Assembly (NCBI RefSeq): GCF_030013595.1
Contig: NZ_CP122768.1
DNA from: Escherichia coli
GTDB taxonomy: Bacteria > Pseudomonadota > Gammaproteobacteria > Enterobacterales > Enterobacteriaceae
DNA: 64,000 bases
Direction: 5' to 3' (one strand)
Shown here: in pieces, positions 2,276 through 59,642 of the stretch
How positions within the stretch are numbered: position 1 is the stretch's first letter
Layout: every line of letters starts with the position of its first letter
Made by a program: the position numbers and the translations under genes
The notes under the pieces: model-generated
Seen by the model: the letters and a program-made list of their open reading frames with translations, nothing else
Told to the model about the DNA's origin: nothing
Database searches by the model: none

Positions 2276-4952
2276 CGAACCCTTACGTCCCGACCCCGAT
2301 CGTCTGCTGGAACAAACTGCCGCGCCGCATCGGGGGAAGCTGAAAGTTTTCTTCGGTGCCTGCGCAGGCGTCGGGAAGACCTGGGCGATGCTGGCAGAAG
2401 CCCAGCGACTGCGGGCGCAAGGGCTGGATATTGTGGTTGGCGTGGTAGAAACCCACGGGCGGAAAGATACCGCCGCAATGCTGGAAGGGCTGGCTGTTCT
2501 GCCGTTAAAACGCCAGGCGTACCGTGGGCGGCACATCAGCGAGTTTGATCTCGATGCCGCCCTCGCCCGCCGTCCGGCACTGATCTTAATGGACGAACTG
2601 GCGCACAGTAATGCGCCAGGTTCTCGTCATCCTAAACGCTGGCAGGACATCGAAGAGCTGCTGGAAGCTGGCATTGATGTTTTCACAACCGTCAACGTTC
2701 AGCATCTGGAAAGTCTGAATGATGTGGTCAGCGGCGTCACCGGAATTCAGGTACGGGAAACCGTGCCCGATCCTTTTTTCGATGCCGCCGACGACGTGGT
2801 GCTGGTGGACTTGCCCCCGGACGATCTGCGTCAACGGCTGAAAGAAGGTAAAGTCTATATTGCCGGGCAGGCGGAACGCGCCATTGAACATTTTTTTCGC
2901 AAAGGCAATCTGATCGCCCTGCGCGAACTGGCACTGCGCCGTACTGCCGATCGCGTAGATGAGCAAATGCGCGCCTGGCGGGGGCATCCTGGCGAAGAGA
3001 AAGTCTGGCACACGCGCGACGCGATCCTTTTATGCATCGGGCATAACACCGGCAGCGAAAAACTGGTCCGCGCGGCGGCGCGGCTGGCGTCACGGCTGGG
3101 TAGCGTCTGGCACGCGGTGTATGTTGAAACCCCTGCCCTGCATCGCTTACCAGAGAAAAAACGTCGGGCAATTCTCAGCGCCTTACGTCTGGCGCAGGAG
3201 CTGGGCGCAGAGACGGCAACACTTTCTGATCCAGCGGAAGAGAAAGCGATAGTGCGTTATGCCCGTGAACATAATCTCGGCAAGATTATTCTCGGTCGCC
3301 CAGCCTCGCGCCGCCGGTGGCGTCGGGAAACGTTTGCTGACCGACTGGCGCGCATCGCCCCCGATCTCGATCAGGTGCTGGTCGCGCTTGATGAACCACC
3401 CGCCCGCACGATAAACAACGCGCCGGATAGCCGCTCTTTTAAAGACAAGTGGCGGGTACAGATTCAGGGATGCGTGGTTGCCGCCGCGTTATGCGCCGTT
3501 ATCACCTTAATTGCCATGCAGTGGCTGATGGCGTTTGATGCCGCCAACCTGGTGATGCTGTACCTACTTGGCGTGGTGGTGGTGGCGCTATTTTATGGAC
3601 GCTGGCCTTCGGTGGTTGCTACCGTCATTAATGTGGTGAGTTTCGATCTCTTTTTTATCGCCCCACGCGGCACGCTCGCCGTCTCTGATGTGCAATATCT
3701 GCTGACCTTCGCGGTGATGTTAACCGTCGGGCTGGTGATCGGGAACCTTACTGCTGGCGTTCGTTATCAGGCGCGGGTAGCCCGTTACCGCGAGCAACGC
3801 ACACGGCACTTATATGAAATGTCGAAAGCTCTGGCGGTGGGCCGCAGTCCGCAGGACATCGCCGCCACCAGCGAACAATTTATTGCCTCCACGTTTCATG
3901 CCCGCAGTCAGGTGTTGTTGCCCGATGACAACGGTAAATTGCAGCCGTTAACACATCCGCAAGGAATGACGCCGTGGGACGATGCCATCGCGCAGTGGAG
4001 TTTTGATAAAGGCCTGCCTGCGGGCGCGGGCACCGACACGTTACCCGGTGTACCGTACCAGATTTTGCCGCTAAAAAGCGGCGAGAAAACCTACGGGCTG
4101 GTGGTGGTGGAACCGGGGAATCTGCGCCAGTTGATGATCCCGGAACAGCAACGCCTGCTGGAGACGTTTACGCTGTTAGTCGCCAATGCCCTTGAGCGGC
4201 TGACACTGACCGCCAGCGAAGAACAGGCGCGGATGGCAAGCGAACGAGAACAGATCCGCAACGCCCTGCTGGCGGCGCTTTCGCATGATTTACGCACGCC
4301 GCTTACGGTGCTGTTCGGTCAGGCAGAAATCTTAACGCTCGATCTGGCGAGCGAAGGATCGCCCCACGCCCGCCAGGCCAGCGAGATTCGTCAGCATGTG
4401 CTGAACACGACCCGACTGGTGAATAATCTACTGGATATGGCGCGAATTCAGTCCGGCGGCTTTAATTTGAAGAAAGAGTGGTTAACGCTGGAAGAAGTGG
4501 TCGGCAGCGCGCTGCAAATGCTGGAACCGGGTTTATCGTCGCCCATCAATCTTTCTCTGCCAGAACCGCTGACCTTAATCCACGTTGACGGGCCACTCTT
4601 TGAACGGGTGCTGATTAATCTGCTGGAGAACGCGGTGAAATACGCGGGGGCGCAGGCCGAAATTGGTATCGATGCCCACGTTGAGGGCGAGAAGCTACAA
4701 CTGGATGTCTGGGATAACGGCCCCGGTCTTCCGCCAGGCCAGGAGCAGACGATATTTGATAAGTTTGCTCGCGGGAATAAAGAGTCGGCGATACCGGGTG
4801 TCGGGCTTGGGCTGGCAATTTGTCGGGCGATTGTGGATGTACACGGCGGCACCATTACCGCGTTCAACCGACCGGAAGGTGGTGCCTGTTTTCGTGTTAC
4901 ACTTCCCCAGCAAACTGCCCCTGAACTTGAAGAATTTCATGAGGATATGTGA
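2268..4952 (+). CDS. kdpD: Sensor histidine kinase KdpD (894 aa)
   Basis: Start at ATG 2268 ([12 protein letters not shown]...) overlapping kdpC stop; Walker-A-like GACAGVGKT, four TM helices, H-box LSHDLRTPL, ATPase G-box [11 protein letters not shown]. Confidence 0.95.
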
Positions 4953-14374: not shown

Positions 14375-14446
14375 TCAAGAGCAAATTCTGTCACTTCTCC
14401 TAATGAAGTGAACCGCTTAGTAACAGGACAGATTCCGCATGACTGA
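14360..14446 (+). CDS. uof: Upstream ORF of fur (28 codons), translationally coupled to fur
   Basis: ATG at 14360; MIRIISRANSVTSPNEVNRLVTGQIPHD; stop at 14444-14446 overlaps fur ATG at 14439. Confidence 0.65.
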   Translation: MIRIISRANSVTSPNEVNRLVTGQIPHD

Positions 14447-14885
14447 TAACAATACCGCCCTAAAGAAAGCTGGCCTGAAAGTAACGCTTCCTCGTTTAAA
14501 AATCCTGGAAGTTCTTCAGGAGCCGGACAACCATCACGTCAGTGCGGAAGATTTATACAAACGTCTGATCGATATGGGTGAAGAAATTGGTCTGGCTACG
14601 GTATATCGCGTACTGAACCAGTTTGACGATGCTGGTATCGTCACCCGCCACAATTTTGAAGGCGGTAAATCCGTATTTGAACTGACACAGCAACATCACC
14701 ACGATCACCTGATCTGCCTCGACTGCGGCAAGGTTATCGAATTTAGTGATGATTCCATCGAAGCGCGTCAGCGTGAAATTGCCGCAAAACATGGCATTCG
14801 CCTGACTAACCACAGTCTCTATCTTTACGGTCACTGTGCCGAAGGCGATTGCCGCGAAGATGAGCACGCGCACGAAGGCAAATAA
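14439..14885 (+). CDS. fur: Ferric uptake regulator Fur (148 aa)
   Basis: ORF 14439..14885; MTDNNTALKKAGLKVTLPRLKILEVL...; C-terminal HHHDHLICLDCG metal-binding region. Confidence 0.97.
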   Translation: MTDNNTALKKAGLKVTLPRLKILEVLQEPDNHHVSAEDLYKRLIDMGEEIGLATVYRVLNQFDDAGIVTRHNFEGGKSVFELTQQHHHDHLICLDCGKVIEFSDDSIEARQREIAAKHGIRLTNHSLYLYGHCAEGDCREDEHAHEGK

Positions 14886-14900
14886 GCCAGCCGGAACGAG

Positions 14901-14930
14901 AAAAGCCAACCTGCGGGTTGGCTTTTTTAT
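14901..14930. terminator. Rho-independent terminator after fur (convergent with chiQ)
   Basis: AGCCAACC-TGCG-GGTTGGCT hairpin followed by TTTTTT. Confidence 0.75.
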
Positions 14931-14968
14931 ACACGGGAAATAAGAAAAGCGAGAGTTACAGCTCTCAC

Positions 14969-15295
14969 TTATTTGTTATTACTGCGAATTTCCTGCCAGA
15001 CCTTATCACAATCGGCTTTTACCGCCTGGTCATTACCGATTTGCGTTGCGCGCAGACACTGCTGATAATCCAGTACGCGTACACTTTCCTGGTCGGCAAA
15101 CTGCTGATGTTGTTTCTCTTTCTTTAGCACGTTTAACACGCTCTGGCAGGCTTCAATTTTTTCCGGCGAACCTTGCGCGGTGTTGATACAGGCGCTGTAA
15201 GCCTCTTTCAGACGGCTGTCTTCCTGCGGTGCGGTTGATTGCGCACAAGCTACCAGCCCCGTTGCCATCATGGCGATGAGAATCAGTTTTTTCAT
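14969..15295 (-). CDS. chiQ: Lipoprotein ChiQ (108 aa)
   Basis: ORF 14969..15295; signal peptide with lipobox LVAC; immediately downstream of chiP on the same strand. Confidence 0.9.
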   Translation of the reverse strand: MKKLILIAMMATGLVACAQSTAPQEDSRLKEAYSACINTAQGSPEKIEACQSVLNVLKKEKQHQQFADQESVRVLDYQQCLRATQIGNDQAVKADCDKVWQEIRSNNK

Positions 15296-16200
15296 AGCAA
15301 ATTCCTCAAACGTGCGGCAGGCACAAAACCTGCCGCGTCGGGCATCAGAAGATGGTGAATGGTGCGATTACCATGAATTTCACGTCGCGCTCATCCTGGA
15401 AAATGTTGCCGTAACCACCGCCCCAGCTTGGGATGTCGGAGTGGTTGTCATATTCGGTGAAATGCAGTTTGAACATCGTGCCCTTGGCGCGACCGTCCTG
15501 AATGGTGTACACCGCATCCAGGCTATATGCAGACTCTTCAATAGTCCGGTTCTTGTCGTAGTACGCATCCGGATTGCTCTGCCAGGTAGCGGGTTTAGCA
15601 TCCCATGCGTAAACGTAGGAAGCGCCGATGGCGAAGCCTGGAAGATTCCAGTTTTTCAGGTCATACATCGCACCGAAGAAGACCGCTTTTTCGCCGTTGG
15701 CGTTGAAGTCAGAACGGTTATCCCACCAGATATCCAGGCGACCGTTCGAGGAAGCGTAGGTTGGAGTCATACGTTGCAGGAAGTATCCCTGCTGACCGTC
15801 GGCTTTAACCCAGGTGCCTTCCAGACGCAAATCCACTACATCAGCCGCCCGGTAACCAAAGGTCAACGCTTGCAGCCAGGCGGTGCCGTCATAAAGATCG
15901 TTGACGCTGCGATCGTCAACTTTATCGCGCGTACCATAGAACTGGTAGCTGGTGGTTAACGGGCTACCGGCGATATCAAATTTGTAGCTGGCTTTGGCAA
16001 AATATTGATCGATATCCCCTTCTGCCTGACCAAATGCCGCTTCCAGTACAAAGTTATTTTTGAAGTCGTACTTCGCACCGATGGAGTGCAGATAATCAAC
16101 TTTGGTGGTTTTATCGTTCTGATAAAACTCATCCATTTCCAGATGCCACGGTGCTTTGTATTCGTTGGTCCACATGTAGGAGAAACTCAAGGCACCAGCA

Positions 16201-16209
16201 TCGCCGTAA
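16201..16209. repeat. Target-site duplication, left copy (TCGCCGTAA)
   Basis: Identical 9-mer directly abuts both ends of the IS. Confidence 0.9.
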
Positions 16210-17266
16210 GGCTTTGTTGAATAAATCGAACTTTTGCTGAGTTGAAGGATCAGATCACGCATCCTCCCGACAACACAGACCATTCCGTGGCAAAGCAAAA
16301 GTTCAGAATCACCAACTGGTCCACCTACAACAAAGCTCTCATCAACCGTGGCTCCCTCACTTTCTGGCTGGATGATGAAGCGATTCAGGCCTGGTATGAG
16401 TCGGCAACGCCTTCATCACGAGGAAGGCCCCAGCGCTATTCTGATCTCGCCATCACCACCGTTCTGGTGATTAAACGCGTATTCCGGCTGACCCTGCGGG
16501 CTGCGCAGGGCTTTATTGATTCCATTTTTTCTCTGATGAACGTTCCGCTACGCTGCCCGGATTACAGCTGTGTCAGCAGGCGGGCAAAGTCGGTTAATGT
16601 CAGTTTCAAAACGCCCACCCGGGGTGAAATCGCACACCTGGTAATTGATTCCACCGGGCTGAAGGTCTTCGGTGAAGGCGAGTGGAAAGTCAAAAAGCAT
16701 GGCCAGGAACGCCGCCGTATCTGGCGTAAGCTGCATCTCGCCGTTGACAGTAAAACACATGAAATCATCTGCGCTGACCTGTCGCTGAACAACGTTACGG
16801 ACTCAGAGGCCTTCCCCGGGTTAATCCGGCAAACCCACCGGAAAATCAGGTCAGCCGCCGCCGATGGCGCTTACGATACCCGGCTATGTCACGATGAACT
16901 GCGGCGTAAGAAAATCAGCGCGCTTATCCCTCCCCGAAAAGGTGCGGGTTACTGGCCCGGTGAATATGCAGACCGTAACCGTGCAGTGGCTAATCAGCGA
17001 ATGACCGGGAGTAATGCGCGGTGGAAATGGACAACAGATTACAACCGTCGCTCGATAGCGGAAACGGCGATGTACCGGGTAAAACAGCTGTTCGGGGGTT
17101 CACTGACGCTGCGTGACTACGATGGTCAGGTTGCGGAGGCTATGGCCCTGGTACGAGCGCTGAACAAAATGACGAAAGCAGGTATGCCTGAAAGCGTGCG
17201 TATTGCCTGAAAACACAACCCGCTACGGGGGAGACTTACCCAAAATCTGATTTATTCAACAAAGCC
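16210..17266 (+). mobile_element. IS903-type insertion sequence (IS5 family), 1057 bp, complete
   Basis: Perfect 18-bp terminal inverted repeats GGCTTTGTTGAATAAATC (16210-16227 and 17249-17266, reverse complement); single transposase ORF; 9-bp flanking direct repeat; length and end sequence match my recollection of IS903. Confidence 0.9.
16287..17210 (+). CDS. IS903-type DDE transposase (about 307 aa from GTG 16287; ORF track gives 322 aa from ATG 16242)
   Basis: Translation ...[36 protein letters not shown]...AADGAYDT... matches the IS903/Tn903 transposase as I recall it; ORF lies wholly within the IRs. Confidence 0.85.
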
Positions 17267-17275
17267 TCGCCGTAA
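17267..17275. repeat. Target-site duplication, right copy (TCGCCGTAA)
   Basis: Identical to 16201-16209. Confidence 0.9.
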
Positions 17276-18171
17276 TCAAAATTCGCTCCGGCTTCCGCAC
17301 CCTGATAAGTACCTGGCATAAAGCTCCAGTGCGGCGCTAACAGCGTCTGACCGGTTGGCTGAATATAACCTGCCCTCGCCCAAACCGGACCGTATTTAAA
17401 TTTGGCCGCAGCTTTATACAGGCTTATACCGCTTTTGTCGCCGGACCAGTCTTCGTCATAGGCTTTATTACTTTTTGAAAACGCGATTTCGTTCGGGTGA
17501 GAGCTGTCGCCGTTTTCCGCCATTTCAATCGCCGTAAACGCGGCAATATCAAGGCCGAACATATCAGCAGCATAACCGGACTGAAAATCGAGGTTGGCGT
17601 TCCAGGTGGAGTGAGAAAGGTTGGTTTTGTATTTGTCGCCGTCGGTAACATCTTTACGGTCGCGTTCACGCTGCCAGTAATAGATACCGCCGGTTAAGGT
17701 TGAATCGTCGATGAATCCTTCGGCGCGAGCCTCCGGCATTGCCATAAAGCCCGACATTGCTGTAACACCGGCGATAGCCAGCGCCAGCGTACTACGTTTG
17801 CCACTAAACGTACGCATGGGTTAATCCTCTTTGACGTATAAATTGCTGCACCAAAGGTGAACAGCGAAAAAAATAAAAATTAAAAAAGTAGCGTTGAGAA
17901 AAGTCTCGCTGACTACAGGAACAGACTATTTTTCGCGACGCGAATTATCAATCTCTTTCTGTAACCAGAATGTAAGAACATGAGCAACCGCACATATTTT
18001 GATGATTTTTGTTACAAGGCTTAAGTTTGCGGTTGAAAGGCTTGCAGAAGAATAAAAACGTGAAATTCCAGCAAGATGAAAGCGTTTACATTTTATTTAA
18101 TTATGATTTGTGATTTTAAATTTATTTTATGAATAAATTGCGAAGCGGAATTAATTCGCGAAGAAAAGCAG

Positions 18172-18199
18172 AAAAAAACGCCGCAGAGCGCGGCATTTT
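18172..18199 (-). terminator. Rho-independent terminator of glnS
   Basis: GCCGC-AGAGC-GCGGC hairpin with A-run on plus strand (T-run on minus strand). Confidence 0.6.
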
Positions 18200-18218
18200 G
18201 AATTGTTTGCATGTTTCA

Positions 18219-18257
18219 TGCCGGATGCGGCGTAAACGCCTCACCCGGCCTGGTAGA
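18219..18257. repeat. REP (repetitive extragenic palindrome) element
   Basis: TGCCGGATGCGGCGTAAACGCCTCACCCGGCCTGGTAG matches the E. coli REP consensus family. Confidence 0.75.
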
Positions 18258-18265
18258 ACTTAAAA

Positions 18266-19930
18266 TTACTCGCCTACTTTCGCCCAGGTATCACGCAGCC
18301 CAACGGTGCGGTTAAATACCGGTTTTTCCGCCGTAGAATGGCGGCTGTCGAGGCAGAAATAACCTTCACGCTCAAACTGGAATGCTTTACCCGCTACCGC
18401 GTCTTTCAGAGACGGTTCAGCAAAGCCCTGTTTGATCACCAGCGATTCCGGGTTAATCACCGACAGGAAATCATCCGCAGCACCTGGGTTCGGCACGCTG
18501 AACAGACGATCGTACAGGCGGATTTCAACCGGCAGCGCATGTGCCGAGCTCACCCAGTGAATAACGCCTTTCACTTTACGACCATCTGCCGGATCTTTGC
18601 TTAAGGTGTCGGCGTCATAAGTACAGAAGATGGTGGTGATATTGCCTTCGGCATCTTTCTCCACGCGTTCTGCCTTAATGACGTAAGCATTACGCAGACG
18701 CACTTCTTTACCCAGCACCAGACGCTTGTACTGCTTGTTAGCTTCTTCGCGGAAATCGGCGCGATCGATCCAAATCTCACCGCTAAACGGCACCTGACGG
18801 CTCCCCATTTCCGGTTTGTTCGGATGGTTCGGCATGGTAACCATTTCACCTTCGCCCTGATAGTTTTCGATAACCAGTTTCACCGGATCGATAACCGCCA
18901 TTGCGCGCGGGGCGTTTTCGTTGAGATCTTCACGGATGCAGGATTCCAGCGACGCCATTTCAATGGTGTTGTCCTGCTTGGTCACGCCGATGCGTTTGCA
19001 GAACTCACGAATAGAAGCCGCAGTGTAACCACGACGACGCAGACCGGAAATGGTCGGCATACGCGGGTCATCCCAGCCTTCAACGTGCTTGTCGGTCACC
19101 AGCAGGTTCAGCTTACGCTTGGACATCACAGTGTATTCCAGATTCAGGCGCGAGAATTCGTACTGGCGCGGGTGAACAGGAATGGTGATGTTGTCCAGCA
19201 CCCAGTCGTACAGGCGACGGTTGTCCTGGAACTCAAGCGTACACAGAGAGTGCGTAATACCTTCCAGCGCATCGCTGATGCAATGGGTGAAGTCGTACAT
19301 CGGGTAGATGCACCACTTGTTGCCAGTCTGGTGGTGTTCAGCAAATTTAATGCGGTACAGCACCGGATCGCGCATTACGATAAATGGCGACGCCATGTCG
19401 ATTTTCGCACGCAGGCAGGCTTTACCTTCTTCAAAACCGCCGGTACGCATTTTCTCGAACAGCGCCAGGTTCTCTTCAACGCTGCGGTCGCGGTACGGGC
19501 TGTTTTTACCCGGCTGCGTCAGGGTGCCGCGGTATTCGCGGATCTGTTCCGGTGTCAGTTCATCAACGTACGCCAGGCCTTTATTGATCAGTTCGATCGC
19601 ATAGGCGTGGAGCTGATCAAAATAATCGGAGGAGTAACGGACGTTACCAGACCAGTGAAAACCTAACCACTCAACGTCGTTTTTGATCGACTCAACATAC
19701 TCGATATCTTCTTTTACCGGGTTAGTGTCGTCGAAACGCAGGTTGCACTGGCCTTTATAGTCCTGGGCGATCCCGAAGTTCAGGCAGATAGATTTCGCAT
19801 GGCCAATATGCAGATAGCCATTCGGCTCCGGCGGGAAACGGGTGTGTACTGTGGTGTGCTTACCACTGGCCAGATCTTCATCGATGATCTGACGAATAAA
19901 GTTAGTCGGGCGGGCTTCTGCCTCACTCAT
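18266..19930 (-). CDS. glnS: Glutaminyl-tRNA synthetase (554 aa)
   Basis: ORF 18266..19930; class I aaRS HIGH motif (HIGHAKS) and KMSKS-type VMSKR. Confidence 0.97.
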
Positions 19931-29219: not shown

Positions 29220-29267
29220 AATTCTGAATGTGTCGAATAAGTTCGGCAAATTCACAAACCAATTTGT

Positions 29268-29342
29268 TGGGGTATCGCCAAGCGGTAAGGCACCGGATTC
29301 TGATTCCGGCATTCCGAGGTTCGAATCCTCGTACCCCAGCCA
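29268..29342 (+). tRNA. glnV: tRNA-Gln (anticodon CUG)
   Basis: 75-nt Gln tRNA with anticodon loop GGATTCTGATTCC. Confidence 0.93.
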
Positions 29343-29379
29343 ATTTATTCAAGACGCTTACCTTGTAAGTGCACCCAGT

Positions 29380-29454
29380 TGGGGTATCGCCAAGCGGTAA
29401 GGCACCGGATTCTAATTCCGGCATTCCGAGGTTCGAATCCTCGTACCCCAGCCA
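29380..29454 (+). tRNA. glnX: tRNA-Gln with anticodon CUA: amber (UAG) suppressor allele, supE44-type
   Basis: Same sequence as the preceding Gln(CUG) gene except anticodon loop GGATTCTAATTCC; anticodon CTA at 29412-29414. Confidence 0.9.
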
Positions 29455-29461
29455 CATTAAA

Positions 29462-29490
29462 AAAGCTCGCTTCGGCGAGCTTTTTGCTTT
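29462..29490 (+). terminator. Rho-independent terminator of the tRNA operon
   Basis: AGCTCGC-TTCG-GCGAGCT hairpin followed by TTTTT. Confidence 0.8.
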
Positions 29491-29496
29491 TCTGCG

Positions 29497-29607
29497 TTCA
29501 TTCAATGTCGAATGCGATGTTGACACGTCTTATCCTTCAATGTCGGATGCGACGCTGCCGCGTCTTATCCGACCTACGGTTGGCACGCATCCGGCAATGT
29601 TGTAAGG
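29497..29607. repeat. Cluster of REP-like palindromes (BIME-like)
   Basis: Repeated units of the AATGTCGGATGCGACGCTGCCGCGTCTTATCCGACCTAC type, one near-complete and two degenerate. Confidence 0.65.
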
Positions 29608-30783
29608 CTACAACCCTAACGCATATTTCAGCGCCTGACGTTTCAACACGCCAGCACGCTCCGCCGCCATCAAACCAAGATTACGCACAAAACGCAGCGG
29701 CGGCAGATTATTACTGAATCCGGCATAAAACAGATCCATACCGCTCTGCATAATGAAGTTATCCGCCATGCGCCGCATCTGGTAACGCTTGAGGACAGGA
29801 TAACTGGCCCACGCTTCGCCGTAGCTGCGGGCATTCACCAGAACATCAATCAGGGCATCGACATCACGATAACCAAGATTCACCCCCTGCCCCGCCAGCG
29901 GATGGATGGTATGCGCGGCATCGCCCACCAGCGCAAGCCCCGGCTGCACATACTGCAACGCATGGCGACGCGTCAGCGGAAACGCACCAGCGGCAAGCGG
30001 TGTCACGTAACCCAGACGCGACGGGAAATGCTTCGCGATTTCCGCCTGGAGCTGTGCCATATTCATATTCTGCAACTGGCGAATGCGCGCCGGAGAGTCA
30101 TACCACACCAGCGATGCCCAGTTATCAAACAACGGCAGAAACGCACGCGGTCCGTCCGGGGTAAATTGCTGCCAGGTGCTGTCGCCGGGATCGTTCTCAC
30201 ACTGTACGCTAATCAACATACACGACTGTGCATACTGCCAGGCATGAACGCCAATTCCCGCCATCTGCCGCACCTGCGAATTTGCGCCGTCGGCACCAAT
30301 CACCAGCTTCGCGCGGATCGTTTCACCGCCCTTCAGTTCCAGCTCCTGAAGATCATTATGGCGATGCAGCGCAATCAGCGAGCCTGGCACACGTAACGTT
30401 ACTTTCGGATGCGCTTCCAGCGCCTGCCACAGCGCCTGTTGCAGGACAGTGTTTTCCACCATGTAGCCAAGCAACGGTAGCTTAAGTTCAGCGGCGTCAA
30501 ACACCACATGCGCCGTTTCCCACTCCCACGTTTCCAGTCTGCGGTAAGGATGGCAACGCATAGCCTGTACTGCATCCCAGACCCCTAACCCTTTAAGCAA
30601 TGATACCGAAGCCGCACTAATCGCCGAGATCCGCACGTCCGGCTGGCTGTCAGCGACAAACGGTGCAGGTTGGGCATGTTCGATAACCATTACCGAAAAT
30701 CCGTGCTGAGCCAGTCCCAGCGCCAGTGCGCCGCCGACCATTCCTCCGCCGACAATGGCAATTTCCGTTGGTTGATTTGTCAT
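29608..30783 (-). CDS. ubiF: Ubiquinone biosynthesis flavin monooxygenase UbiF (391 aa)
   Basis: ORF track 29608..30789; N-terminal FAD-binding GGGMVGG. Confidence 0.93.
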   Translation of the reverse strand: MTNQPTEIAIVGGGMVGGALALGLAQHGFSVMVIEHAQPAPFVADSQPDVRISAISAASVSLLKGLGVWDAVQAMRCHPYRRLETWEWETAHVVFDAAELKLPLLGYMVENTVLQQALWQALEAHPKVTLRVPGSLIALHRHNDLQELELKGGETIRAKLVIGADGANSQVRQMAGIGVHAWQYAQSCMLISVQCENDPGDSTWQQFTPDGPRAFLPLFDNWASLVWYDSPARIRQLQNMNMAQLQAEIAKHFPSRLGYVTPLAAGAFPLTRRHALQYVQPGLALVGDAAHTIHPLAGQGVNLGYRDVDALIDVLVNARSYGEAWASYPVLKRYQMRRMADNFIMQSGMDLFYAGFSNNLPPLRFVRNLGLMAAERAGVLKRQALKYALGL

Positions 30784-36937: not shown

Positions 36938-37846
36938 ATGCAATTACGTAAACCTGCCACAGCAATCCTCGCCCTAGCGCTTTCCGCAGGACTGGCACAG
37001 GCAGATGACGCCGCCCCGGCAGCGGGCAGTACGCTGGACAAAATCGCCAAAAACGGTGTGATTGTCGTCGGTCACCGTGAATCTTCAGTACCTTTCTCTT
37101 ATTACGACAATCAGCAAAAAGTGGTGGGTTACTCGCAGGATTACTCCAACGCCATTGTTGAAGCAGTGAAAAAGAAACTCAACAAACCGGACTTGCAGGT
37201 AAAACTGATTCCGATTACCTCACAAAACCGTATTCCACTGCTGCAAAACGGCACTTTCGATTTTGAATGTGGTTCTACCACCAACAACGTCGAACGCCAA
37301 AAACAGGCGGCTTTCTCTGACACTATTTTCGTGGTCGGTACGCGCCTGTTGACCAAAAAGGGTGGCGATATCAAAGATTTCGCCGATCTGAAAGGCAAAG
37401 CCGTAGTCGTCACTTCCGGCACTACCTCTGAAGTTTTGCTCAACAAACTGAATGAAGAGCAAAAAATGAATATGCGAATTATCAGCGCCAAAGATCACGG
37501 TGACTCTTTCCGTACCCTGGAAAGCGGTCGTGCCGTTGCCTTTATGATGGATGATGCTCTGCTGGCTGGTGAACGTGCGAAAGCGAGGAAACCAGACAAC
37601 TGGGAAATCGTCGGCAAGCCGCAGTCTCAGGAAGCCTACGGTTGCATGTTGCGTAAAGACGATCCGCAGTTCAAAAAGCTGATGGATGACACCATCGCGC
37701 AGGTGCAGACCTCCGGTGAAGCGGAAAAATGGTTTGATAAATGGTTCAAAAACCCAATTCCGCCGAAAAACCTGAACATGAATTTCGAACTGTCAGACGA
37801 AATGAAAGCACTGTTCAAAGAACCGAATGACAAGGCACTGAACTAA
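36938..37846 (+). CDS. gltI: Glutamate/aspartate periplasmic binding protein GltI (302 aa)
   Basis: ORF track 36863..37846; start at internal Met (MQLRKPATAILALALSAGLAQA signal peptide). Confidence 0.93.
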   Translation: MQLRKPATAILALALSAGLAQADDAAPAAGSTLDKIAKNGVIVVGHRESSVPFSYYDNQQKVVGYSQDYSNAIVEAVKKKLNKPDLQVKLIPITSQNRIPLLQNGTFDFECGSTTNNVERQKQAAFSDTIFVVGTRLLTKKGGDIKDFADLKGKAVVVTSGTTSEVLLNKLNEEQKMNMRIISAKDHGDSFRTLESGRAVAFMMDDALLAGERAKARKPDNWEIVGKPQSQEAYGCMLRKDDPQFKKLMDDTIAQVQTSGEAEKWFDKWFKNPIPPKNLNMNFELSDEMKALFKEPNDKALN

Positions 37847-37849
37847 TTA

Positions 37850-38002
37850 CAAGAACCAGGGGCGGAAATTCCAGCCCTCTCGATTGTTACGTAGCACGGA
37901 CAGACTATACGCCTGATGGTCGTTCCCCATCGGGCCTGAAAACCGCAATACGCTGGGTAACAATCTTCGAGGGTAGCAGTTAACGCTGCTACCCTCTTTT
38001 TT
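37850..38002 (+). ncRNA. sroC: sRNA SroC (gltI 3'UTR / gltI-gltJ intergenic), approximate 5' end
   Basis: 169-bp intergenic region ending in a strong intrinsic terminator (GAGGGTAGCAG-TTAACG-CTGCTACCCTC + TTTTTT at 37969-38002); location matches where SroC lies in K-12. Confidence 0.6.
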
Positions 38003-38015
38003 CTGGAGTAGATTT

Positions 38016-59205: not shown

Positions 59206-59211
59206 AGACCA

Positions 59212-59240
59212 AAAAAAACCCGCTGATTAAGCGGGTTTTG
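59212..59240. terminator. Bidirectional terminator between crcB and cspE
   Basis: AAAACCCGCT-GATTA-AGCGGGTTTT hairpin. Confidence 0.75.
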
Positions 59241-59258
59241 AATTCTTGCTGACGTATC

Positions 59259-59468
59259 TTACAGAGCGATTACGTTTGCAGCAGAAGGGCCTTTGGCACC
59301 GTTAGTGATTTCGAACTCTACGCGCTGACCTTCAGCAAGAGTTTTAAAACCATTAGTCTGGATTGCAGAGAAGTGTACGAACACGTCTTTGCTGCCGTCT
59401 TCCGGAGTAATGAAACCGAATCCTTTGGACTCATTAAACCACTTAACGTTACCTTTAATCTTAGACAT
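59259..59468 (-). CDS. cspE: Cold-shock-like protein CspE (69 aa)
   Basis: ORF track 59259..59552; start at [20 protein letters not shown] (RNP1 motif). Confidence 0.95.
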
Positions 59469-59642
59469 CAAAATTACCTTTACATGAAAAATAGACACAA
59501 ATGCTGTGTCGGTTACCAGTACACCAATTGTGGTACGCTTTGTCCAGTGCAACTTTACTAAAAAGTGATAAAAGTCGCGTTATTTTTGATGTTAATTATT
59601 TTACTCATTGATTTTAAAGAGTTTACTAAAATTTCATTTGTC

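Follow-up and report, generated by a model that had tools for sequence, protein, structure and literature searches.

What is left of a chitoporin operon once a mobile element has entered its first gene, and was the entry a natural event? The chiP locus of an Escherichia coli strain (contig NZ_CP122768.1) raises both questions. It was analysed within a stretch of 64,000 nucleotides, referred to here as the window. On the minus strand, chiP extends from an ATG at 17815–17817 to a TGA stop at 15345–15347 and is interrupted after nt 551 by an insertion sequence (IS). An earlier, sequence-only reading of the same DNA had described the interruption and predicted its consequences. Its core observation stands, with corrections to one start codon, to the residues counted beyond the signal peptide, and to the share of the porin assigned to the 3´ fragment. 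The insertion is an ordinary gene knockout event. In all likelihood it is genuine, evolutionarily recent, and private to the strain, an active copy of IS903B having transposed into codon 184 of chiP to give a null allele.

The element and its arrival in chiP

The element occupies 16210–17266 on the plus strand (1057 bp) and is a member of the IS903 group of the IS5 family, as seen from its length, inverted repeats, 9-bp duplication, single DDE open reading frame (ORF), and near-identity to known copies. The 18-bp terminal inverted repeats are perfect, with GGCTTTGTTGAATAAATC at 16210–16227 and its exact reverse complement at 17249–17266. A perfect 9-bp direct repeat, TCGCCGTAA, flanks the element as an unstranded target-site duplication, with the left copy at 16201–16209 and the right copy at 17267–17275; once the gene is restored, this target corresponds to nt 543–551 of native chiP. 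Over the full 1057 bp, the IS is 99.9% identical to copies annotated by RefSeq as “IS5-like element IS903B family transposase,” and the sole difference from these, at position 17242, lies outside the transposase gene. That gene (16242–17210, plus strand) is antisense to chiP and encodes an intact DDE transposase of 322 aa from a PGAP-style TTG start at 16242, or of 307 aa from an alternative GTG at 16287. The protein scores 358 bits against NCBIfam NF033579 (cut-off 140 bits) over profile positions 1–289 of 289, gives full-length matches to the Pfam families DDE_Tnp_1_5 (PF13737) and DDE_Tnp_1 (PF01609), and is identical to the copy in strain 201609. That the element is active in transposition is suggested only by its intact ends and transposase and by a target duplication that is still fresh.

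IS903B copies occur in at least 1,536 of 5,426 complete E. coli genomes, and a single copy is found in the window. The nearest relative, strain HCP5S3_I2, is collinear with the window over 64 kb, from which it differs by 26 SNPs, two single-base indels, and, as the only structural difference, the IS insertion. When chiP::IS was used as a query against the 5,426 complete genomes, no genome covered 80% or more of it, and a 36-mer spanning the IS junction had no hit in either genome_contigs or metagenome_contigs. The absence of the allele from the searched collections and the lack of any other structural difference from the nearest relative argue that the insertion is recent and private to the strain. 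Before that, the gene appears to have been maintained: 37 of the 39 differences between this chiP and that of K-12 are synonymous, which points to purifying selection until recently. Besides the IS, chiP differs from the nearest relative only by T736G (16016, minus strand), a private substitution within the 3´ fragment that changes Y246 to D; the 71-mer surrounding this site has no exact match among 4,576 matching complete genomes.

That the insertion is unique to the present sequence could also mean that it is not natural, but arose during laboratory passage, exists in a subpopulation only, or was created in assembly, by the misplacement of a repeated IS into chiP. The IS is multi-copy in many E. 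coli genomes, and such repeats are often misplaced by assemblers; in addition, the window holds a supE-type suppressor allele, otherwise known from laboratory K-12 lines, which hints at a laboratory history. However, complete IS ends set between two perfect 9-bp copies of chiP sequence are the signature of real transposition rather than of a chimeric join, and we consider a non-natural origin unlikely. A laboratory or subclonal state would in any case leave the effect of the allele the same.

Two fragments of a chitoporin

Deletion in silico of the IS and one copy of the repeat gave an uninterrupted chiP of 1407 nt encoding 468 aa, and the reconstructed protein scored 847.4 bits against the ChiP equivalog model (cut-off 750 bits). 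The locus order glnS, chiP, chiQ, fur, together with a ChiX-complementary 5´ UTR, is the context of the enterobacterial chitoporin ChiP. In the interrupted gene, the 5´ fragment is an ORF at 17236–17817 (minus strand, 193 aa). It consists of 183 native residues (codons 1–183 at 17269–17817, followed by native nt 550–551 at 17267–17268) and 10 IS-coded residues, and it ends at a TAA at 17236–17238. This fragment matches profile positions 1–182 of the ChiP model with 304.7 bits (E = 1e-90), below the cut-off. The 3´ fragment is an ORF at 15345–16298 (minus strand, 317 aa) that starts in the left end of the IS and continues in frame into native ChiP residues 181–468 (PYG, then DAGAL...), with its native part at 15345–16209. 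It matches profile positions 177–460 with 534.9 bits (E = 2e-160), likewise below the cut-off. With such E-values, and with the two fragments tiling the ChiP model end to end, chance is an implausible source of the chiP pieces. Neither fragment contains further frameshifts or stops.

No single ORF passes the cut-off of the ChiP model, and the signal peptide and the contiguous 18-strand barrel are split over two ORFs. Judged by sequence, the locus is a disrupted chiP and not a functional chitoporin member. The prediction that full-length ChiP can no longer be made was thus well founded (305 and 535 bits for the fragments against a cut-off of 750, and 847 for the reconstructed protein). Other details of the earlier description need adjustment. 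The 5´ product does end in 10 IS-coded residues and a stop inside the IS, but it does not carry 183 residues beyond its signal peptide: solved E. coli ChiP chains in the PDB begin at E33, the signal peptide is residues 1–32, and the 183 native residues include it, leaving 151 mature residues. The 3´ ORF does start at 16298 and does enter ChiP in frame, but its start codon is TTG and not ATG; ATG first occurs in frame at 16283 and then at 16262. Its share of ChiP, given as the C-terminal two-thirds, is somewhat smaller, at 285 of 468 residues (61%).

ChiP is a monomeric porin with a single barrel of 18 β-strands (PMC9582717). Neither fragment could form it, since the 5´ product has only 151 mature residues and the 3´ product has no signal peptide on its remaining 285 residues. 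Nor did we find, at any of the three candidate starts of the 3´ ORF, a Shine-Dalgarno sequence with workable spacing. At ATG 16283 and ATG 16262, Shine-Dalgarno-like purine runs abut the start codon directly, and TTG 16298 is preceded only by a weak GGTGA 10 nt upstream. Re-initiation as a source of functional C-terminal ChiP was rejected on the grounds of this poor spacing and the missing signal peptide.

For some IS elements, the formation of outward or hybrid promoters is known. It is conceivable that the IS rewires expression, with an outward promoter at its left end driving chiQ, an N-terminally truncated ChiP, or both, independently of ChiX. The 317-aa in-frame fusion ORF of IS and chiP is what such a reading would call for. 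We regard it as extremely improbable. A consensus scan of 14800–18300 returned a single promoter-like site, at 18119–18090 and far upstream of chiP. Within the left end of the IS and beside it, the minus strand had none; inspection by eye gave TTCAAC as the best -35-like hexamer there, without a -10 partner. A literature search on outward promoters of IS903 gave nothing relevant. The truncated product would, moreover, be poorly translated given the start sites described above and, without a signal peptide, could not get to the outer membrane. The outward promoter proposed earlier for chiQ thus finds no support, although a weak promoter missed by the consensus scan could drive some chiQ expression.

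The suppressor allele in the window is a supE-type amber-suppressor tRNA-Gln at 29380–29454 in a non-K-12 background, and it is more unusual than the chiP insertion. Read-through of the premature stop by an amber suppressor was considered and rejected, the stop being TAA; chiP and the transposase gene end in TGA, and chiQ ends in TAA.

A retained leader and a probably silenced downstream gene

The part of the locus upstream of the chiP start codon is untouched. The promoter region is unchanged, and the 5´ UTR at 17818–17916 (minus strand) matches the K-12 annotation of chiZ (b4808; 708236–708333, directly upstream of the chiP ATG). This region is identical to that of the nearest relative, and to that of K-12 except for a run of seven T instead of six. 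ChiZ is an sRNA derived from the chiP 5´ UTR that sponges ChiX (Adams et al., 2021; PMC7815308). The ChiX pairing core, CGUCAAAGAGGA, at 17825–17836 (minus strand) overlaps the chiP Shine-Dalgarno sequence, 7 nt upstream of the ATG, and its 12 nt are exactly complementary to UCCUCUUUGACG of K-12 ChiX. A duplex prediction with full-length ChiX against the leader gave -38.7. Shuffled controls averaged -31 and went down to -45, so this energy lies within their range and is uninformative; the argument for the ChiX site rests on the exact complement and on the compensatory-mutation work cited in PMC7815308. An Rfam scan of the window returned no family between 14000 and 19000; elsewhere it found sroC, a cspA-type thermoregulator, and tRNAs. 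The claim that the chiP 5´ UTR with its ChiX site is retained is thus borne out, the leader being unchanged relative to the nearest relative. Two aspects of this regulation are additional to that account, namely the default silencing of chiPQ by ChiX and Rho, and the presence of the chiZ sRNA within the retained 5´ UTR.

The downstream gene, chiQ, is also intact. As described earlier, it lies downstream of chiP in the operon; it is an ORF on the same strand at 14969–15295, begins 49 nt past chiP, and encodes a lipoprotein with the lipobox LVAC. It is identical to that of the nearest relative, without a single SNP, and the protein differs from K-12 ChiQ at three residues. A predicted terminator-like hairpin at its end (14947–14970, minus strand) is common to chiQ and the convergent fur, in agreement with a terminator reported to serve both genes (PMC10687069).

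Whether chiQ is still expressed depends on the RNA between the premature stop and its start. From the TAA to the chiQ start at 15295, 1,940 nt contain no ORF with a credible ribosome-binding site. A C-rich, G-poor stretch of the antisense-IS RNA at 16940–17198 (minus strand, about 260 nt) begins 38 nt past the stop and is a candidate Rho loading region, with C/G ratios of 1.25–1.87 in consecutive 78-nt windows; this is an unvalidated, uncontrolled composition heuristic. A native stretch of the same kind lies within chiP at 17537–17666 (minus strand, ORF nt ~152–281; C/G 1.35–2.08 in 78-nt windows), a short way 5´ of where the Rho termination region mapped in K-12 at 708624 (PMC7815308, supplement) would fall. 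That position corresponds to chiP ORF nt ~291, or ~17527 in the window, and is upstream of the IS. According to a review (PMC6582626), untranslated chiP RNA leads to Rho-dependent polarity on chiQ (Bossi, 2012), and chiPQ is silent by default in uninduced cells through ChiX and Rho. These regulatory results were obtained in K-12 and Salmonella rather than in the present lineage, whose chiP differs by 2.8% from that of K-12. With some 1.9 kb of untranslated RNA past the stop, C-rich and G-poor at its beginning, polarity of chiP::IS on chiQ is likely, as predicted from the C/G heuristic and the published polarity of chiPQ. Of the two effects on chiQ proposed earlier, polarity or an outward promoter, polarity is the better supported.

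We propose the following course of events. In uninduced cells, ChiX would block chiP translation, and Rho would end transcription before the IS is reached, at about ORF nt 291, such that the insertion would be phenotypically silent; because ChiX and Rho silence chiPQ upstream of the insertion site in K-12, effects are expected only upon induction by chitosugars. Chitosugars would titrate ChiX, and ribosomes would then read 183 native and 10 IS codons and halt at the TAA at 17236–17238. The signal-peptide-bearing product, with its 151 mature residues and no closure of the 18-strand barrel, would be broken down in the periplasm. Beyond the stop, the transcript would go on as ~1.9 kb of untranslated RNA comprising antisense IS and the 3´ part of chiP. 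Rho would load on the C-rich stretch right after the stop and terminate, and chiQ would be silenced by polarity. The IS-chiP ORF, lacking a usable ribosome-binding site and a signal peptide, would give no functional protein. In sum, ChiP-dependent uptake of chito-oligosaccharides and most ChiQ would be lost, while ChiZ would still be made. The predicted phenotype is an absence of ChiP-mediated uptake of chitotriose and larger chito-oligosaccharides, with little ChiQ produced.

Loss of the porin might itself have been selected, if it lowers permeability to antibiotics or other toxic agents or removes a surface receptor, such that cells with the IS were enriched. Aminoglycosides pass through ChiP about as fast as through OmpF and OmpC (bioRxiv 10.1101/2022.09.05.506620), IS903B is often behind selected knockouts such as those of mgrB in Klebsiella, and the closest relatives of the strain are livestock isolates. 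Against this, the default silence of chiP through ChiX and Rho means that there would normally be little ChiP to lose, and the insertion is not recurrent, with none of the 5,426 complete genomes having it. Searches of the literature turned up neither a chiP gene disrupted by an IS nor a phage that uses ChiP as its receptor, and one event cannot demonstrate selection. A selected knockout is thus quite unlikely.

A related idea is that the locus is now a pure regulatory-RNA gene, with an active promoter and chiZ but without porin and ChiQ, and that this state may have been selected. We consider this very unlikely. If true, chitosugars would still relieve the ChiX repression of other targets without opening a chitoporin channel, and selection could favour the resulting low permeability of the outer membrane, e.g. 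to aminoglycosides or other solutes. For a recent knockout by transposition, the reading that we prefer, the import beyond the annotation of the strain is small. There, chiP should be entered as a pseudogene, with neither of the two ORFs called as a protein.

Comparison with known systems

The closest parallel to the event is found in IS903B knockouts such as those of mgrB in Klebsiella pneumoniae. The element is the same (1057 bp, 18-bp repeats, 9-bp duplication, IS5-family DDE transposase), and so is the mechanism, simple insertion into a coding sequence to give a null allele. The present case differs in that the target is chiP and the allele was found in no other genome searched. In classical polar mutations, IS1, IS2, and other elements inserted in a promoter-proximal gene of operons such as gal or lac destroy that gene and cause a Rho-dependent drop in expression of the distal one. 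In principle, chiP::IS does not differ from these and is another instance.

The polarity predicted for chiQ resembles that induced by ChiX (Bossi et al., 2012; PMC6582626), where untranslated chiP RNA likewise lays C-rich sequence open to Rho, transcription ends, and chiQ is turned off. The window conserves both the C-rich stretch native to chiP and the position at which Rho terminates in K-12. In the ChiX/Rho system, however, an sRNA acting at the ribosome-binding site keeps chiP untranslated, and this block can be lifted, whereas the stop at codon 194 is predicted to act constitutively and to expose mainly antisense IS RNA. Finally, the region of ~98 nt that gives rise to ChiZ upstream of the ATG in K-12 (PMC7815308; b4808) is present and essentially identical, including the ChiX-complementary 12-mer. 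In contrast to K-12, chiZ precedes a dead gene in the present strain, and the locus would keep its RNA function only. By sparing ChiZ and the ChiX target, the insertion may have produced a natural separation-of-function allele in which the RNA is kept and the protein is lost.

chiP and the inserted IS903B

The interval 14439-19930 holds fur (+), chiQ (-), chiP (-) and glnS (-), the known E. coli arrangement, and within it chiP (start ATG 17817, stop TGA 15345-15347, minus strand) is split by an IS903B element of 1057 bp at 16210-17266. The element has perfect terminal inverted repeats of 18 bp (GGCTTTGTTGAATAAATC) and entered after chiP nt 551, within codon D184, where a perfect 9-bp direct repeat, TCGCCGTAA, marks the target duplication (16201-16209 and 17267-17275). 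This duplication argues against a chimeric assembly that placed the IS in chiP. A single intact transposase gene runs antisense to chiP, on the plus strand; its product matches the NCBIfam IS5-family model from end to end (358 bits in a profile search, cut-off 140), as well as both Pfam DDE domains. The IS DNA is 99.9% identical to copies annotated as IS903B in RefSeq, the sole nucleotide difference (17242) lying outside the transposase gene. Among the 5,426 complete E. coli genomes, at least 1,536 carry IS903B copies, on chromosomes and plasmids alike, and no second copy was detected within the 64-kb window.

With the IS and one copy of the repeat removed in silico, chiP is a continuous gene of 1407 nt. 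The encoded protein of 468 aa reaches 847 bits with the ChiP equivalog model (cut-off 750). From E33 on, it aligns with E. coli chitoporin chains of known structure (7VU1, 7VTZ and 7VU0) over their full length; the printed alignment to 7VU1 shows two substitutions. The two fragments, at 305 and 535 bits, together tile the model end to end, so the disruption proposed in the sequence-only reading is real. The 5´ fragment ORF (17236-17817, minus strand; 193 aa) comprises 183 native residues and 10 IS-coded residues before a TAA stop, as had been described; the 32-residue signal peptide is part of the 183 rather than additional to them, leaving only 151 mature residues. The 3´ fragment ORF (15345-16298, minus strand; 317 aa) has 29 IS-coded residues followed by native ChiP from about 181 to 468. 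It is in frame from 16298, as claimed, but opens with TTG and not ATG, the first in-frame ATGs being at 16283 and 16262. This ORF lacks a signal peptide, and none of its three candidate starts has a Shine-Dalgarno sequence at a usable spacing. As a monomer, ChiP folds into one 18-strand beta-barrel (PMC9582717), which neither fragment can form, in agreement with the prediction that full-length chitoporin is lost. The 5´ product would undergo export, presumably followed by degradation.

Age of the insertion and its surroundings

The window is collinear with the genome of its nearest relative, the pig isolate HCP5S3_I2; the two are separated by 26 SNPs and by two single-base indels, both intergenic, and the only structural difference over the 64 kb is the IS with its duplication. 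When the disrupted chiP was used as query, coverage was at most 69% in all 5,426 complete E. coli genomes, with the flanks present without this IS, and the left-junction 36-mer occurs neither in the species-representative genome collection nor in the metagenome collection. Compared with K-12, chiP has 39 differences. Since 37 of them are synonymous, purifying selection must have acted on the gene until shortly before the IS arrived. No frameshift or stop has appeared in either fragment. The insertion is, judging from these comparisons, a recent transposition private to the strain; it may also have arisen in culture or be subclonal. The 3´ fragment carries a private change, Y246D (window 16016, chiP nt 736, minus strand), and the 71-mer around it has no exact match among 4,576 complete genomes carrying the segment. 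This could be compatible with relaxed constraint after the knockout, of which it is no proof alone, or could be an unrelated SNP or sequencing error.

Other features of the region were recorded. Swine isolates K_EC180 and EC556 carry an IS200C-family element of ~710 bp somewhere in their fur-chiQ-chiP-glnS stretch, so IS903B is not the only mobile element to have inserted in this neighbourhood. A cluster of five of the 26 SNPs lies in kdpD (2955-4909), and four of these change the protein (L230V, M781V, V842I, P881Q); some may be the relative's own, because the protein accession of its KdpD is very recent. None of the SNPs in the window introduces a stop codon. Rfam matches to sroC in the gltI-gltJ region (37842-38004, plus strand, 174.8 bits) and to a cspA-type thermoregulator upstream of cspE (59211-59569, minus strand, 123 bits) are both expected in this part of the E. 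coli chromosome.

In the tRNA cluster metT-leuW-glnU-glnW-metU-glnV-glnX, the last tRNA-Gln (glnX position, 29380-29454, plus strand) has CTA in place of CTG as its anticodon, owing to one G-to-A substitution at 29414. ARAGORN labels it ‘tRNA-Pyl’; with this anticodon it is an amber suppressor of the supE44 type. The identical 75-nt allele is shared by 154 complete E. coli genomes; the 60 carriers listed all resemble K-12 laboratory lines (among them C600, DH5alpha, DH1, J53 and NCM3722). Here the flanks are non-K-12, with 13 differences over 1.3 kb, and the 64 kb around the gene match the pig isolate, so that the suppressor seems either to have arisen separately in another lineage or to point to a history in the laboratory. 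The suppressor and this haplotype do not occur together among the matches listed for a 491-nt query (29230-29720; best 99.4%). HCP5S3_I2 was expected at 99.8% (one mismatch) yet is missing from those matches, probably through the joining or ranking of repeated tRNA pieces, and the absence of an exact match is thus provisional. Rescue of chiP by the suppressor is ruled out because the premature stop is TAA.

Expected effects on chiQ and on the regulatory RNAs

The chiQ gene is intact, 49 nt downstream of chiP, and identical to that of the nearest relative. As summarised in PMC6582626, a block on chiP translation by the sRNA ChiX leads to Rho termination inside chiP and silencing of chiQ (Bossi et al. 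2012). In the disrupted allele, chiP translation would end at 17236, leaving ~1,940 nt of untranslated RNA between the premature stop and chiQ; from 38 nt past the stop, the antisense IS RNA contains a stretch with a C/G ratio of 1.25-1.87. Polarity was judged from this composition heuristic and from analogy. The promoter scan returned no promoter-like site in or beside the IS left end, which speaks against the suggestion that an outward-reading promoter drives chiQ. Taken together with the precedent in the same operon, the long untranslated RNA and the C-rich stretch, this makes strong Rho-dependent polarity on chiQ, already raised as a possibility from the sequence, likely.

The K-12 Rho termination region at 708624 corresponds to chiP nt 291 (approximately window 17527), 260 nt upstream of the IS, and the native C-rich stretch ahead of it is conserved here (17666-17537). 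ChiX is abundant in uninduced cells, and transcription there would rarely get as far as the insertion; the allele should be silent in such cells and have effects only when chitosugars titrate ChiX. Retention of the chiP 5´ UTR with its ChiX target was correctly noted in the sequence-only reading, which overlooked that this UTR is itself an sRNA gene, chiZ (b4808 in K-12): the ~98 nt upstream of the chiP ATG yield ChiZ, an Hfq-dependent sRNA that sponges ChiX (PMC7815308). The segment (17818-17916) is identical to K-12 except for one extra T in a T-run, and the 12-nt ChiX-complementary core lies at 17825-17836. Thus, the locus retains an RNA function and loses its protein functions.

Phenotype and likeness to known insertions

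Serratia chiP mutants show poor growth on (GlcNAc)2 and none on (GlcNAc)3 (PMC9582717). By analogy, growth on chitotriose and larger oligomers is expected to be lost, with a smaller effect on chitobiose. Conduction of aminoglycosides by ChiP in vitro (bioRxiv 10.1101/2022.09.05.506620) would allow the loss of chiP to be read as adaptive; such selection is unlikely because chiP is normally silent and the insertion does not recur.

In conclusion, chiP::IS903B is a textbook case of an IS insertion, probably polar, and the IS involved is very common; only the particular allele is new. IS903B is a well-known knockout agent in Enterobacteriaceae, and the same element is at work here.
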